Part shown: one piece after another, positions 29,190-49,245 of the stretch
How the letters are laid out: each line of letters opens with the position of its first letter
Position numbering within the stretch: the first letter of the stretch is position 1
Assembly (NCBI RefSeq): GCF_003019035.1
Contig: NZ_CP027447.1
Origin: Escherichia coli
GTDB lineage: Bacteria; Pseudomonadota; Gammaproteobacteria; Enterobacterales; Enterobacteriaceae
Strand: one strand, 5' to 3'
Length of the DNA: 64,000 bases
Translations under genes and position numbers: made by a program
Notes under the pieces: generated by a model
The model's database searches: none
What the model saw: only the letters and a program-made list of their open reading frames with translations
Told to the model about the DNA's origin: nothing

Positions 29190-30053
29190 TTAAATGCTTT
29201 TACCAAAAGTATTGCATTGTGCCGGATCGCCGCTGTCGAAACCACGTTTAAACCAGCTGTAGCGTTGCTGAGAAGTGCCATGAGTGAAACTGTCTGGTAC
29301 TACTCGCCCCTGACTTTGCTGTTGTAAACGGTCATCGCCGATGGCCTGCGCCGCGTTCAGCGCCTCTTCCAGATCGCCGGTTTCCAGAACACCTTGCTGC
29401 TGCATACTATGCCCCCAGACACCGGCAAAACAGTCGGCCTGGAGTTCCATACGCACAGATAAGCGGTTCACTTCCGCCTGCGTCGCGTTTTCTTGCAGTT
29501 GACGAACTTTCGGCTCGATGCCTAACAGTTTCTGCACATGATGACCGACTTCATGGGCGATAACGTACCCCTGGGCAAAATCGCCATCCGCGCCAAGTTT
29601 GTCTTTCATGTCATCATAGAAGGAGAGATCGATATAAACCGTGCCATCCGCCGGGCAATAGAACGGTCCCATAATGGATTGGCCCGCCCCGCAGCCGGTG
29701 CGCGTCATTCCACGGTACATGACCAGCTTCGGTTGCTGATAGGTTTTACCCATCTTCTCGAATTGCTGTCCCCAGGTGTCTTCCGTGGTTGCCAGAATCA
29801 CCGAAGTGAATTTTGCGGCTTCGTCTTCATTAGGACTAATTGACCGTGTTGATTGCTGTTGGGAAACCGGCTGTCCGGTCATCAACCCGGTTAAATCAAC
29901 GCCATAGTAGCCTGCAACCAGCACGACTATCAGTAAAATCAGCCCGCCTTTACCGCTTGGCAGGCGAAAACCTGGACCGCCCATTGACGGACCACCAGAG
30001 CTGTTGCGCCTGTCTTCAACATTGTCACTTTCACGTCGCCCTTGCCAACGCAT
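29190..30053 (-). CDS. ypfJ: Putative neutral zinc metallopeptidase YpfJ
   Basis: 287-aa ORF with HEVGHH zinc-binding motif and N-terminal transmembrane segment. Confidence 0.9.
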
Positions 30054-33794: not shown

Positions 33795-34264
33795 TGAATC
33801 CACTGAAAGCCGGTGATATCGCACCGAAATTTAGCTTGCCGGATCAAGACGGAGAACAAGTTAATTTGACCGACTTCCAGGGACAGCGTGTTCTGGTTTA
33901 TTTCTACCCGAAAGCCATGACCCCCGGCTGTACCGTACAGGCCTGCGGCTTACGCGATAACATGGATGAGTTGAAAAAAGCGGGCGTTGATGTGCTGGGT
34001 ATCAGCACCGATAAACCCGAAAAACTCTCCCGTTTTGCGGAAAAAGAGCTGCTTAACTTTACGCTCCTGTCTGATGAGGACCACCAGGTGTGCGAACAAT
34101 TCGGCGTCTGGGGTGAAAAGTCCTTCATGGGCAAAACCTACGATGGTATTCATCGCATCAGCTTCCTGATTGACGCTGATGGCAAAATCGAACATGTTTT
34201 TGACGATTTCAAAACCAGCAATCACCACGACGTTGTGCTGAACTGGCTGAAAGAACACGCCTGA
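33794..34264 (+). CDS. bcp: Thiol peroxidase Bcp (peroxiredoxin)
   Basis: 156-aa ORF with peroxiredoxin active site (PGCT); start overlaps gcvR stop. Confidence 0.94.
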   Translation: MNPLKAGDIAPKFSLPDQDGEQVNLTDFQGQRVLVYFYPKAMTPGCTVQACGLRDNMDELKKAGVDVLGISTDKPEKLSRFAEKELLNFTLLSDEDHQVCEQFGVWGEKSFMGKTYDGIHRISFLIDADGKIEHVFDDFKTSNHHDVVLNWLKEHA

Positions 34265-34377
34265 TTACTTTGCTCCATTCCGTGCTGGCTGCGCTTGCGG
34301 TCAGCACACCTCACTTCTCGTGATCAAGATCACATTCTCGCTTTCCCCTGCGACACGGGTGTCGAATCCATTTATTG

Positions 34378-34413
34378 CTGAACGTTAATGACCATCATTT
34401 TTGTACCGTTCAG
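34378..34413. promoter_or_regulatory. Candidate upstream activator site for hyf (inverted repeat CTGAACGT ... CCGTTCAG)
   Basis: Inverted repeat about 50-80 bp upstream of the sigma-54 element; a second palindrome CGACACGGGTGTCG lies at about 34349-34362; assignment to HyfR/FhlA is inference. Confidence 0.35.
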
Positions 34414-34459
34414 AATCCAGTTAACACATAAATTATTGAATATATTAAATTAATCAGAC

Positions 34460-34475
34460 TGGCATCCTTTATGCA
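34460..34475 (+). promoter_or_regulatory. Sigma-54 (-24/-12) promoter of the hyf operon
   Basis: TGGCATCCTTTATGCA: GG and GC dinucleotides 12 nt apart, matching the TGGCAC-N5-TTGCA consensus; about 42 bp upstream of the hyfA ATG; consistent with sigma-54 activator HyfR in the operon. Confidence 0.65.
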
Positions 34476-34516
34476 ATATGAAATGCAATGTTTCATATCA
34501 TTTTCAAGGAGCCGAC

Positions 34517-35134
34517 ATGAACCGCTTTGTGGTGGCCGAACCACTGTGGTGTACAGGATGTAATACCTGTCTCGCTGCCTGTTCGGACGTGCATAAAACG
34601 CAAGGTTTACAGCAACACCCGCGCCTGGCCCTGGCGAAGACGTCAACACTCACTGCCCCTGTCGTGTGTCATCACTGTGAGGAAGCCCCTTGCCTGCAGG
34701 TCTGCCCGGTCAATGCCATCTCCCAGAGGGACGATGCGATCCAACTCAACGAAAGCCTCTGTATTGGCTGCAAGCTTTGCGCCGTGGTCTGCCCATTTGG
34801 CGCAATCAGCGCTTCAGGAAGCCGTCCGGTGAATGCCCCTGCGCAATATGTTTTTCAGGCTGAGGGCTCACTCAAAGACGGCGAAGAAAACGCGCCAACC
34901 CAACATGCTTTGCTGCGCTGGGAACCGGGTGTCCAGACCGTCGCGGTGAAATGCGACCTGTGTGATTTCTTGCCAGAAGGTCCGGCCTGCGTTCGCGCTT
35001 GTCCGAATCAGGCGTTACGGCTGATCACCGACGATAGCCTGCAACGTCAGATGAAAGAAAAACAGCGCCTTGCCGCAAGCTGGTTTGCCAATGGCGGGGA
35101 GGATCCCCTTTCCCTCACTCAGGAGCAACGCTAA
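34517..35134 (+). CDS. hyfA: Hydrogenase-4 component A (4Fe-4S ferredoxin-type)
   Basis: 205 aa from MNRFVVAEP with AAGGAG ribosome-binding site; multiple CxxCxxCxxxCP motifs. Confidence 0.93.
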   Translation: MNRFVVAEPLWCTGCNTCLAACSDVHKTQGLQQHPRLALAKTSTLTAPVVCHHCEEAPCLQVCPVNAISQRDDAIQLNESLCIGCKLCAVVCPFGAISASGSRPVNAPAQYVFQAEGSLKDGEENAPTQHALLRWEPGVQTVAVKCDLCDFLPEGPACVRACPNQALRLITDDSLQRQMKEKQRLAASWFANGGEDPLSLTQEQR

Positions 35135-38126: not shown

Positions 38127-39566
38127 ATGGAAAATCTTGCTCTGACGACGTTATTGCTGCCTTTTATCGGCGCACTGGTCGTTTCGTTTTCGCCACAACG
38201 TCGGGCCGCCGAATGGGGGATTTTGTTCGCCGCGCTGACCACGCTGTGCATGTTGTCGCTGATCTCCGCGTTTTATCAGGCCGATAAAGTTGCCGTCACG
38301 TTGACGTTGGTCCACGTGGGGGATGTGGCGTTGTTTGGCCTGGTCATTGATCGCGTGAGTACGCTGATTCTGTTTGTGGTGGTGTTCCTCGGTTTGCTGG
38401 TCACGATCTACTCCACGGGTTATCTGACGGATAAAAATCGCGAACACCCGCATAACGGCACGAATCGTTATTACGCATTTTTGCTGGTTTTTATCGGCGC
38501 GATGGCGGGACTGGTACTCTCCTCGACGCTGCTCGGTCAGTTGTTGTTTTTTGAAATTACGGGCGGCTGCTCCTGGGCGTTGATCAGTTATTACCAGAGC
38601 GATAAAGCGCAGCGTTCAGCACTAAAAGCGTTACTTATCACTCATATCGGTTCGCTGGGGTTGTATCTTGCCGCCGCCACGCTGTTTTTGCAGACCGGAA
38701 CGTTTGCGCTTAGCGCGATGAGCGAGTTACACGGCGACGCACGTTATCTGGTTTATGGCGGCATCCTGTTTGCCGCGTGGGGGAAATCGGCCCAGCTACC
38801 GATGCAAGCGTGGCTACCGGATGCAATGGAAGCGCCAACACCGATCAGCGCCTATCTCCACGCCGCATCGATGGTGAAAGTGGGCGTTTACATTTTTGCC
38901 CGTGCCATTATCGACGGCGGCAATATCCCGCATGTGATTGGCGGCGTTGGCATGGTTATGGCACTGGTCACCATTCTTTACGGCTTCCTGATGTATTTGC
39001 CACAGCAGGATATGAAGCGGTTGCTGGCCTGGTCGACCATCACTCAACTTGGCTGGATGTTTTTCGGCTTGTCGCTCTCCATCTTCGGCTCGCGGCTGGC
39101 GCTGGAGGGCAGCATCGCCTACATCGTCAACCACGCGTTCGCTAAAAGCCTATTTTTCCTTGTAGCAGGTGCGCTGAGTTACAGCTGCGGCACGCGCTTG
39201 TTGCCGCGTCTGCGTGGCGTATTGCACACCCTGCCGTTGCCAGGCGTGGGTTTCTGCGTAGCCGCGCTGGCGATTACCGGCGTACCGCCGTTCAACGGCT
39301 TCTTCAGTAAATTCCCGCTGTTTGCCGCCGGTTTTGCGTTGTCAGTGGAGTACTGGATCCTGCTGCCCGCCATGATTCTGCTGATGATTGAATCGGTCGC
39401 CAGTTTCGCCTGGTTTATTCGCTGGTTTGGTCGCGTCGTGCCTGGCAAACCGAGCGAGGCCGTCGCCGATGCCGCACCGCTGCCAGGATCAATGCGCCTG
39501 GTGTTGATTGTACTGATTGTGATGTCGCTGATTTCCAGCGTAATCGCCGCGACCTGGTTGCAGTAA
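38127..39566 (+). CDS. hyfD: Hydrogenase-4 component D (NuoM/N-like antiporter subunit)
   Basis: 479-aa membrane ORF. Confidence 0.92.
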   Translation: MENLALTTLLLPFIGALVVSFSPQRRAAEWGILFAALTTLCMLSLISAFYQADKVAVTLTLVHVGDVALFGLVIDRVSTLILFVVVFLGLLVTIYSTGYLTDKNREHPHNGTNRYYAFLLVFIGAMAGLVLSSTLLGQLLFFEITGGCSWALISYYQSDKAQRSALKALLITHIGSLGLYLAAATLFLQTGTFALSAMSELHGDARYLVYGGILFAAWGKSAQLPMQAWLPDAMEAPTPISAYLHAASMVKVGVYIFARAIIDGGNIPHVIGGVGMVMALVTILYGFLMYLPQQDMKRLLAWSTITQLGWMFFGLSLSIFGSRLALEGSIAYIVNHAFAKSLFFLVAGALSYSCGTRLLPRLRGVLHTLPLPGVGFCVAALAITGVPPFNGFFSKFPLFAAGFALSVEYWILLPAMILLMIESVASFAWFIRWFGRVVPGKPSEAVADAAPLPGSMRLVLIVLIVMSLISSVIAATWLQ

Positions 39567-45263: not shown

Positions 45264-47276
45264 ATGGCTATGTCAGACGAGGCGATGTTTGCCCCGCCGC
45301 AAGGAATAACAATTGAAGCGGTAAACGGAATGCTCGCGGAGCGGTTAGCACAGAAACACGGCAAGGCGTCTTTATTACGCGCCTTCATCCCGCTGCCGCC
45401 GCCGTTCAGCCCGGTACAACTTATTGAACTGCATGTTCTCAAAAGCAACTTCTATTACCGCTACCATGATGATGGCAGCGATGTGACGGCAACAACAGAG
45501 TATCAGGGTGAGATGGTCGATTATTCGCGCCACGCCGTCCTTCTCGGCAGTAGTGGAATGGCGGAGCTACGCTTTATTCGCACCCACGGCAGTCGTTTTA
45601 CTCCCCAGGATTGCACACTGTTTAACTGGCTGGCACACATAATCACTCCGGTTCTGCAATCATGGCTCAATGATGAAGAACAGCAGGTGGCGCTGCGTTT
45701 GCTGGAGAAAGATCGCGATCATCATCGGGTACTGGTGGATATCACTAATGCAGTGTTGTCACATCTTGATCTCGACGATCTGATCGCTGACGTCGCTCGT
45801 GAGATCCATCATTTTTTCGGTCTGGCTTCAGTCAGTATGGTACTGGGCGATCATCGAAAGAACGAGAAGTTCAGCCTGTGGTGCAGCGATCTTTCTGCCT
45901 CACATTGTGCGTGTCTGCCACGCAATATGGCTGGCGACAGTGTATTGCTGACACAAACGCTACAAACCCGACAACCGACCTTGACGCACCGTGCAGACGA
46001 TCTGTTTCTCTGGCAACGCGACCCGTTATTACACTTACTTGCATCTAACGGCTGCGAATCTGCGCTCCTTATACCGCTCACCTTTGGCAACCATACACCG
46101 GGTGCATTGTTGCTGGCGCATACCTCTTCCACTCTCTTTAGTGAGGAAAACTGCCAGCTACTACAACATATTGCCGATCGCATCGCTATTGCCGTTGGCA
46201 ATGCCGATGCCTGGCGCAGCATGACCGATTTGCAGGAAAGCTTGCAGCAAGAAAACCACCAGCTTAGCGAGCAGCTCCTTTCGAATCTGGGCGTCGGTGA
46301 CATTATCTATCAAAGCCAGGCAATGGAAGACCTGCTCCAGCAGGTAGATATTGTGGCGAAGAGCGACAGTACGGTGTTGATTTGTGGTGAAACCGGAACC
46401 GGCAAAGAGGTGATCGCCAGAGCGATCCATCAACTTAGCCCACGACGCGACAAGCCACTGGTCAAAATCAACTGCGCTGCCATCCCCGCCAGTCTTCTGG
46501 AAAGTGAGTTATTCGGTCATGACAAAGGGGCATTTACTGGTGCGATTAATACCCATCGTGGTCGTTTTGAAATTGCCGATGGCGGCACGTTGTTTCTCGA
46601 TGAAATTGGCGATCTGCCGTTAGAACTTCAGCCTAAACTGCTGCGCGTATTGCAGGAACGGGAGATTGAGCGTCTCGGCGGGAGTAGAACGATCCCGGTA
46701 AATGTCAGAGTCATTGCCGCCACCAACCGTGATTTGTGGCAAATGGTTGAAGATCGCCAGTTTCGCAGCGATCTCTTTTATCGCCTGAATGTCTTCCCAC
46801 TGGAACTGCCGCCACTGCGCGACCGTCCGGAAGATATCCCTCTTTTAGCAAAGCATTTCACGCAAAAAATGGCGCGCCATATGAATCGCGCAATTGACGC
46901 CATCCCGACCGAGGCGCTACGCCAGTTGATGTCGTGGGACTGGCCGGGCAACGTGCGCGAGCTGGAAAACGTGATTGAGCGAGCGGTACTACTGACTCGC
47001 GGTAACAGTCTGAATTTACATCTTAATGTCCGACAAAGCCGTTTACTGCCGACGCTAAATGAAGATTCAGCACTTCGCAGTTCAATGGCGCAGTTGCTGC
47101 ACCCGACGACGCCAGAGAATGACGAAGAAGAACGTCAGCGCATTGTTCAGGTATTGCGAGAAACCAATGGCATTGTTGCCGGGCCCCGTGGCGCGGCGAC
47201 GCGATTAGGGATGAAGCGCACCACGCTGCTGTCACGAATGCAGCGTCTGGGGATCTCGGTTCGCGAGGTGTTGTAA
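45264..47276 (+). CDS. hyfR: Sigma-54-dependent transcriptional activator HyfR (formate-sensing, FhlA-like)
   Basis: 670 aa from MAMSDEAMF; AAA+ sigma-54 interaction domain ([14 protein letters not shown]) and C-terminal HTH. Confidence 0.93.
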
Positions 47277-48146: not shown

Positions 48147-48183
48147 AAAATCAGCCCGGCGAAACAGTTCGTCGGGCTGAAGA

Positions 48184-49245
48184 TTATTCTTGCGCTATTT
48201 GCCCATCGGGCCAGGCGTGAATCACGGCTTTGATCAGCGTCGCCAACGGAATGGCGAAGAATACGCCCCAGAATCCCCACAAACCACCGAAGATCACTAC
48301 TGATAAAATAATGACCAGCGGATGCAGGTTAACCGCTTCGGAGAACAACACCGGCACTAGCAGGTTGCCGTCCAGCGCCTGAATAATCAGATACACCGCG
48401 AAGCAGCTCCAGAATTCCGTGCCAGCACCAAACTGGAATAGCGCCACGCCAATCACCGGAATGGTCACCACAAATGCGCCAATGTACGGAATAAGAACCG
48501 AGAAGCCGACCAGCACCGCCAGCAGCAGCGAATAGTTCAGCCCGAAGAGTAAGAACCCCAGCCAGGTGGCGATCCCCACCACGATCATCTCCAGCACTTT
48601 GCCGCGGATATAGTTGGTGATTTGTTGATTCATCTCCTTCCACACCTGTCCTGCCAGCCCACGGTTACGCGGCAGCACCCGACGAACGGCGTTCAGCATC
48701 TGCTCTTTGTCTTTCAGCAGGAAGAAGACCATCAATGGTACCAGCACCAGATAGACGGCTATGGTCAGCAAACCGACCAGCGAGGCGAGGGAAATTTTCA
48801 CCACCGAATCGCCCATGGTCAGCATCCGACTGCGCATATTTTCGGCCATTGCATCAATAATGCCCGCGTCCATTAACGCCGGATAGCGGCGCGGCAACGT
48901 GGCGGCAAAGTCAGAAAGCTTATTGAGCATCCCCGGCATATCGCGGATTAAGTAGATGCCCTGTTGCCAGGCGATAGGCAGTACCACGAACGCCATCAGT
49001 AGCAATATACCGACGAAAACCACCAATACAATCGACGTCGCCCAGCGGCGGGAGCAGCCAATAGATTGCAGGCGCACGGTTGGCCATTCCAGCAAATAGG
49101 CCAGCACAATAGCCACCAGCAACGGAGCAAGCAGGCCACTAAAGAAAAAGATAATGCCAAATCCGGCAACTAAAATAACCAGCAAGGCAATCGCTTCCGG
49201 GTCGCTAAAACGGCGGCGATACCATTGCATCAACATTTCGAGCAT
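48184..49245 (-). CDS. perM: AI-2E family inner membrane permease PerM (YfgO)
   Basis: 353-aa polytopic membrane ORF. Confidence 0.88.
   Translation of the reverse strand: MLEMLMQWYRRRFSDPEAIALLVILVAGFGIIFFFSGLLAPLLVAIVLAYLLEWPTVRLQSIGCSRRWATSIVLVVFVGILLLMAFVVLPIAWQQGIYLIRDMPGMLNKLSDFAATLPRRYPALMDAGIIDAMAENMRSRMLTMGDSVVKISLASLVGLLTIAVYLVLVPLMVFFLLKDKEQMLNAVRRVLPRNRGLAGQVWKEMNQQITNYIRGKVLEMIVVGIATWLGFLLFGLNYSLLLAVLVGFSVLIPYIGAFVVTIPVIGVALFQFGAGTEFWSCFAVYLIIQALDGNLLVPVLFSEAVNLHPLVIILSVVIFGGLWGFWGVFFAIPLATLIKAVIHAWPDGQIAQE

Follow-up and report, generated by a model that had tools for sequence, protein, structure and literature searches.

Candidate activator site and conserved 16-bp block in the control region of the sigma-54 promoter of the Escherichia coli hydrogenase-4 (hyf) operon

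At sigma-54 promoters such as glnAp2 with NtrC, or nifH with NifA and IHF, an AAA+ activator binds a UAS at about -100 to -140, and IHF bends the DNA between this UAS and the -24/-12 element. The promoter discussed here shares this type of architecture, but differs from these systems in the member of the activator family and in the recognition sequence. The closest described system is the same locus in E. coli K-12, PhyfA. Transcription from K-12 PhyfA reportedly starts 30 bp upstream of hyfA, and hyf expression is said to depend on sigma-54 (rpoN) and on FhlA; two studies are said to have described rpoN- and activator-dependent expression. Plasmid-borne hyfR reportedly leads to roughly 1000-fold induction, HyfR is said to shift the hyf promoter region in gels, and optimal HyfR-driven expression of a hyf-lacZ fusion reportedly needs cAMP-CRP. 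As far as we know, the reported binding data for HyfR at hyf consist of a gel shift with the complete promoter fragment, and we know of no published footprint that would tell which bases are contacted there by FhlA or HyfR.

Among the other members of the formate regulon, the FhlA-dependent sigma-54 promoters of fdhF and hydN carry upstream an exact match to the pattern CGWCA-N4-TGWCG (CGTCAAAACTGACG in fdhF and CGTCACTAGTGTCG in hydN), located 85 nt (fdhF) and 75 nt (hydN) from the sigma-54 box, compared with 109 nt in hyf. The hyf palindrome differs from these two in having a G-rich centre and A/T-swapped half-sites, and the hyf region contains, unlike fdhF and hydN, a CRP site and a conserved 16-bp block in addition. 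The FhlA-responsive UAS in the hyc-hyp intergenic region has clustered CGACA/TGTCG half-sites, one of its sequences, CGACATCAT, resembles the hyf block, but it lacks the 5-4-5 palindrome and its half-sites are spaced differently from those of hyf. HyfR reportedly does not activate hyc. The hyf/FHL-2 loci of Proteus, Providencia, Morganella, Dickeya and Pectobacterium have a sigma-54 box, one or two CGWCA-N4-TGWCG sites 64-101 nt upstream of it, and an IHF-like site whose offset is constant, whereas the CRP palindrome and the 16-bp block are absent and the genomic context is different. The hyf operon of P. mirabilis is FhlA- and RpoN-dependent and has two predicted FhlA sites. In Atlantibacter hermannii (L056:8663-9103) a nikR-like gene takes the place of bcp in front of the hyf operon; the CRP palindrome and the 16-bp block are missing, and the palindrome is kept 108-109 nt upstream of the box.

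The DNA analysed here (the window) is a 64,000-nucleotide stretch of an E. coli genome, and the proposed control elements fall in the 252-nt spacer between bcp and hyfA (Table 1). The gene order is bcp upstream and hyfA to focB downstream, with hyfB and focB confirmed by NCBIfam and RefSeq annotation. The statement in the initial annotation that the operon encodes its own sigma-54 activator was correct. The best NCBIfam match of HyfR is the FhlA model, with a score under the cut-off of that model. Over their whole length HyfR and FhlA share 51% identity; the C-terminal helix-turn-helix is almost the same in the two proteins, which have the sequence KRTTLLSRM(Q/K)RLGI in common. Between positions 34200 and 34600 the sequence identity of the window is 100% with strain FDAARGOS_497 and 98% with K-12-like strains. 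The spacer differs from that of K-12 by eight substitutions in 252 nt, none of which falls within any of the elements; no difference is seen in the -24/-12 16-mer or in any element upstream of it, and what remains is strain-level polymorphism only, including the base 5' of TGGCA, which is C in the window and A in K-12. In FDAARGOS_497 a group II intron (ltrA) splits a ypfJ-like zinc metallopeptidase gene (L060:7148-10354); the ypfJ ORF of the window (287 aa, 29190-30053) is intact and does not have this intron, so that the window must derive from another strain.

Table 1. Features of the bcp-hyfA spacer and of the genes discussed, with positions in the window
Feature	Position	Strand	Location relative to start	Remarks
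bcp	33794-34264			Gene 5' of the spacer; NCBIfam and RefSeq annotation
bcp-hyfA spacer	34265-34516			252 nt
Imperfect hairpin GTGCTGGCTGC/GCGGTCAGCAC	34282-34307			G+C-rich, directly 3' of bcp, no T-tract
CRP site CGTGATCAAGATCACA	34319-34334		centre ~-160	Outside the interval of the initial annotation
Palindrome 1 (UAS1) CGACACGGGTGTCG	34351-34364		centre ~-129	Candidate FhlA/HyfR enhancer; arms 6+6 nt
Palindrome 2 CTGAACGTTA/TACCGTTCAG	34378-34413			Arms 34378-34387 and 34404-34413, 10 nt, 90% complementary; core CTGAACG 34378-34384, CGTTCAG 34407-34413
16-bp block TGACCATCAYTTTTGT	34389-34404		centre ~-90	Inside the spacer of palindrome 2
IHF-like site ATTCAATAATTTA	34429-34441	-	centre ~-51	One mismatch to consensus WATCAANNNNTTR; predicted
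Sigma-54 -24/-12 element TGGCATCCTTTATGCA	34460-34475	+		GG 34461-34462, GC 34473-34474, canonical spacing
Inverted repeat ATATGAAA/TTTCATAT	34476-34498		-11 to +12	Perfect 8-nt arms, straddling the -12 region and +1
Transcription start	34486-34487	+	+1	GC at 34473-34474 taken as -13/-12 gives 34486
Shine-Dalgarno AAGGAG of hyfA	34506-34511	+		Read from sequence; GGAGCC invariant in the Escherichia/Citrobacter/Kosakonia alignment
hyfA (hydrogenase 4 subunit A)	34517-35134	+		ATG at 34517; RefSeq annotation of matching E. coli genomes, translation
hyfR (sigma-54-dependent activator within the operon)	45264-47276	+		Annotated HyfR

The sigma-54 box with correct GG/GC spacing, which the initial annotation had placed at 34460-34475, is there exactly, and begins 57 nt before the hyfA ATG in the same orientation. 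Judged from sequence alone the box is suggestive but not decisive, because with the Barrios matrix (186 sites) it ranks only 9th, with 12.1 bits, among the roughly 128,000 positions of the window; of the higher-scoring matches that were checked against gene coordinates, most are intragenic. The loose pattern TGGCAYN5WTGCW was found once in the 64-kb window, against an expectation of 0.58. By the Barrios matrix, the intragenic plus-strand matches at 38948-38963, 45688-45703 and 47086-47101 outscore the true box of hyfA. One higher-scoring intragenic match is located within hyfR, some 200 nt before focB; the K-12 sigma-54 ChIP-seq tables list no intragenic hyf site.

The promoter is established by experiments published for the identical sequence. 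The 16-mer of the box is the same in the window and in K-12, from which the sigma-54 binding data come: the K-12 motif ATGGCATCCTTTATGCA is the sigma-54 ChIP-seq site OS23 (Bonocora et al. 2015), which has a fold-above-threshold score of 16 and is flagged as experimentally confirmed in EcoCyc, with a predicted start 31 nt before hyfA. In gSELEX with the RpoN holoenzyme the hyfA site was the strongest peak in the genome. The TGGCA..TGC bases of the box are invariant in the related genera of the spacer alignment. Since the K-12 16-mer is a confirmed sigma-54 site, PhyfA is an already established promoter, and its recognition in the window is a rediscovery, with nothing new in the promoter itself. 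The rule of Bonocora et al., 19 nt past the motif centre, puts the start 31 nt before hyfA, at 34486. Published data argue against a start elsewhere and against rpoN-independent expression of hyfA. As the start has reportedly been mapped and rpoN dependence is said to have been found, the checks proposed by the initial annotation have already been done.

The perfect 8-nt inverted repeat that overlaps the start is within chance (0.23 expected); the alignment shows no conservation of this repeat in other genera, and in O157 the outermost base pair is disrupted. An RNA hairpin was ruled out for it, because the left arm lies upstream of the transcription start. In the leader of hyfA the sequence AAYGTTT at about +2 to +8 (34487-34494) is kept across Escherichia, Citrobacter and Kosakonia, with A223, A224, G226 and T227-229 as invariant alignment columns. 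At the other end of the spacer, the hairpin directly following bcp was not called by a terminator scan of 34100-34700, and two of the substitutions between K-12 and the window fall in or beside its right arm. The same scan, which covered sigma-70 promoters and terminators, made no calls at all in 34100-34700, and an Rfam search returned nothing meaningful.

The initial annotation proposed two upstream inverted repeats as activator-binding sites, and this enhancer proposal turned out to be half right: palindrome 1 is supported, palindrome 2 is not. Palindrome 1 had been located at about 34349-34362; the repeat is real, but its true position, 34351-34364, differs from this by 2 nt. It fits the pattern CGWCA-N4-TGWCG, which we derived from homologous hyfA promoters and then found at fdhF and hydN, and it is the sole exact match in the 64-kb window (0.27 expected). 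We fetched 45 loci encoding HyfA relatives, and obtained 29 promoters, that of the window included, with a sigma-54 box not more than 130 nt from the start codon. With at most one mismatch the pattern was present upstream of the box in 29 of 29 promoters, compared with an estimated chance expectation of about 0.014 per locus. The distance from the start of the palindrome to the T of TGGCA is 107-109 nt in Escherichia, Citrobacter, Kosakonia and Atlantibacter (109 nt in the window), about 100 nt in Sodalis, Dickeya and Pectobacterium, and 64-77 nt in Providencia and Morganella. In the first four genera the spacing is thus fixed even though the flanks have diverged. In the spacers of E. coli, Citrobacter and Kosakonia CGACAC..TG.CG is invariant, while the mean column identity is 72%; the arms do not vary among seven E. 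coli strains, one of which has a changed base in the N4 centre. The position of the palindrome falls in the range expected of an FhlA-type UAS, about 60-140 bp upstream of the sigma-54 promoter of a formate-regulon operon.

This comparative evidence, the occurrence in all 29 promoters together with the match to fdhF and hydN, makes palindrome 1 (UAS1) the best candidate for the FhlA/HyfR enhancer. The recognition consensus of FhlA/HyfR is loose, as the half-sites of the hyc-hyp UAS are spaced differently. HyfR and FhlA probably share UAS1, because their recognition helices are near-identical, a similarity that fits the known cross-activation.

The CRP site lies upstream of the interval 34340-34516, in which the initial annotation had looked for control elements. 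That interval does contain the promoter and the palindromes, but by starting at 34340 it excludes the CRP site, and the IHF-like site inside it was missed. Binding of CRP has been observed on the identical 16-mer: in ETEC H10407 it is the motif beneath the ChIP-seq peak of CRP that lies 5' of hyfA. The gene also appears in a list of CRP targets as one that was already known and has been confirmed by SELEX. The sequence cGTGATCAAGATCACA has 9 of the 10 bases of the TGTGA-N6-TCACA consensus, and the spacer alignment shows the TGTGA-N6-TCACA palindrome to be kept in Citrobacter and Kosakonia. The same palindrome has been predicted elsewhere as an FNR site; it was unbound in vivo in an FNR ChIP-seq study, and we reject an active FNR site at this position for the conditions of that study.

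Between UAS1 and the promoter, in a stretch with 23-25% G+C, lies the IHF-like site. A match to the IHF consensus with at most one mismatch was found in 24 of the 29 loci, whereas shuffled sequences gave an expectation of 5.4. In 23 of these 24 loci the element is on the same strand, with its start 30-31 nt from the box on the upstream side or, in a second group, 41-43 nt from it; three Citrobacter loci have a perfect consensus. An IHF ChIP-chip signal at a site upstream of hyfA is noted in the supplement of Myers 2013. On the basis of this comparison we regard 34429-34441 as a predicted IHF site.

It must be considered whether palindrome 1 is a chance repeat and the true activator site lies elsewhere, for example in the palindrome TGATCAAGATCACA. 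Inverted repeats with perfect 6-nt arms are indeed frequent by chance: the 252-nt spacer contains nine of them, against 3.0 expected from dinucleotide shuffles (shuffle fraction 0.03), which were used for all inverted-repeat counts in the spacer, and UAS1, viewed simply as an inverted repeat, does not exceed chance. The published 13-site FhlA matrix (TGTCRAWRATGACA) gives UAS1 a weak score of 4.8 bits, which puts it at about the 600th place among the positions of the window; this matrix disfavours C at position 1 and a G-rich centre, both of which occur in UAS1. The best match to the matrix in the spacer is 34321-34334 with 10.2 bits. This match, however, is the CRP site bound in vivo, and for this reason TGATCAAGATCACA was not accepted as an FhlA site in spite of its top score. 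Palindrome 1, on the other hand, has kept both its sequence and its position from genus to genus, and it agrees with the palindromes of fdhF and hydN, which makes the chance-repeat explanation highly unlikely. We judged the elements to be real because of conservation and published binding data, not because of chance counts. A second alternative is the model of the initial annotation, in which both inverted repeats bind HyfR/FhlA. Palindrome 2 is present as had been described, and can be extended to 10-nt arms with a single mismatch. It is invariant in seven E. coli strains, and its centre lies about 38 bp further downstream than that of palindrome 1, which would be a reasonable distance between tandem enhancers. 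The invariance within E. coli means little, since hardly any position in this part of the spacer varies. The arms are not co-conserved in Citrobacter and Kosakonia: C. amalonaticus has the left arm CTGAACG without a complementary right arm, and in the alignment neither arm is present in the other Citrobacter and the Kosakonia loci. The arms do not match the CGWCA/TGWCG half-sites, and the repeat is within chance, both when counted by perfect 7-nt arms (3 vs. 0.74 expected, shuffle fraction 0.08) and by 10-nt arms with one mismatch (1 vs. 0.44 expected, shuffle fraction 0.23). Binding of the activators to both repeats is therefore unlikely in our opinion; palindrome 2 is E. coli-specific, and is probably not a functional element in itself.

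What is conserved in this part of the spacer is the 16-bp block located between the arms of palindrome 2. Apart from one Y position it is identical in E. coli, in four Citrobacter and in two Kosakonia loci, it begins 70-72 nt upstream of the box in each of these loci, it is invariant among the E. coli strains sampled, and it is the best-conserved stretch of the entire spacer. The block is limited to the bcp-hyf type of locus; Kosakonia has the synteny bcp-hyfA..J-hyfR. Neither the window nor the loci searched contained further exact copies, only matches with three mismatches, which are at chance level. We take the block to be a real element, which could be either a second contact for the activator or the site of another factor. 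A tentative interpretation of the first kind is that the block is a promoter-proximal FhlA/HyfR contact (UAS2), and the enhancer would consist of UAS1 and the block together. This would agree with the high conservation of the block and with its location 37-38 bp downstream of UAS1, as homologues from other genera often have a pair of sites separated by 33-38 bp. The block contains TGACC, one mismatch from a TGACG half-site, its GAC(C)ATCAT sequence is similar both to CGACATCAT of the hyc UAS and to a GACATCG next to the palindrome of hydN, and in Atlantibacter the corresponding position is occupied by CGACATC. On the other hand, the block is not palindromic and has no conserved partner half-site, the FhlA motif leaves the invariance of ATCAYTTTTGT unexplained, the block is not among the 12 best matches to the FhlA matrix in the spacer, and it is confined to bcp-hyf loci. 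A further interpretation, somewhat doubtful at present, is that the block is a distinct, undescribed cis-element of bcp-linked, hyfR-containing hyf operons, which may serve as a site through which the promoter responds to HyfR and not to FhlA alone, or as the operator of another regulator. To our knowledge none of the consensus sequences of Fur, FNR, ArcA, NtrC, IscR type 2, ModE, NarL and IHF, when compared by eye, fits the conserved positions. In E. coli the agreement with the Fur consensus is 14 of 19 positions, the matching flank not being conserved. There may also be an additional sigma-70 promoter in the spacer, as Shimada et al. 2014 found an RpoD-holoenzyme SELEX peak between bcp and hyfA and proposed the hexamer pair ATGACC, 17 nt, CAGAAT (34388-34393 and 34411-34416), whose sequence is identical in the window; such a promoter would be made up of the block and the right arm of palindrome 2. 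If such a promoter accounted for the conservation of this region and led to sigma-54-independent hyf transcription, the hexamers should be conserved. In fact no other genus has kept the -10 hexamer, and it is the supposed spacer of the promoter that is invariant, the reverse of the prediction; the hexamers are weak, and our promoter scan of 34100-34700 was empty. Expression of hyf is, moreover, reportedly sigma-54-dependent. We thus consider sigma-54-independent transcription from these hexamers improbable.

Many E. coli strains do not have the operon. In about 21% of the complete E. coli genomes (1127 of 5424) the match to the spacer is limited to its first ~49-54 nt and hyf is absent; in strain MCJCHV-1 yfgO follows bcp directly. 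The hyf-less allele (L054:1501-1640) contains a diverged remnant of about 47 nt corresponding to 34335-34385 (1 of 1000 shuffles scored as high), in which a decayed palindrome 1, GCAACACTCGTTTAAAA, can be recognised. The remnant joins yfgO at a short repeat, GCTGAACGT (34376-34384) vs. GCTGAAGAT (~48175), when the regions 34311-34387 and 48147-48190 are compared. The GCTGAA repeat present where hyf has been deleted falls on the left arm of palindrome 2, and the short repeat shared at the join thus places the junction of a 13.8-kb hyf deletion in this arm.

Taken together, we interpret the interval, with a probability of about 85% that includes the mechanism outlined below, as the region that controls PhyfA, the previously described sigma-54 promoter of hyfABCDEFGHIJR-focB (hydrogenase-4). 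RNA polymerase with sigma-54 would bind the -24/-12 element as a closed complex, and initiation would take place at 34486/34487. Formation of the open complex would need an enhancer-binding ATPase of the FhlA family, either FhlA or the operon's own HyfR, and this activator is predicted to bind at UAS1. The A+T-rich IHF-like site would be the place where a bend in the DNA brings the activator to the polymerase, and cAMP-CRP bound further upstream would modulate expression. The putative layout is therefore CRP at about -160, the UAS at about -129, the 16-bp block at about -90, IHF at about -51, the -24/-12 element, and a 30-nt leader with AAGGAG.

The value that this analysis adds to what was known of hyf control is modest and mostly positional: it nominates 34351-34364 over palindrome 2 as the activator site, it places the IHF site and it draws attention to an invariant block, which is the only item of any novelty. 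These positions provide sharper targets for mutagenesis, both for the question why hydrogenase-4 is silent in E. coli and for attempts to switch it on for hydrogen production.
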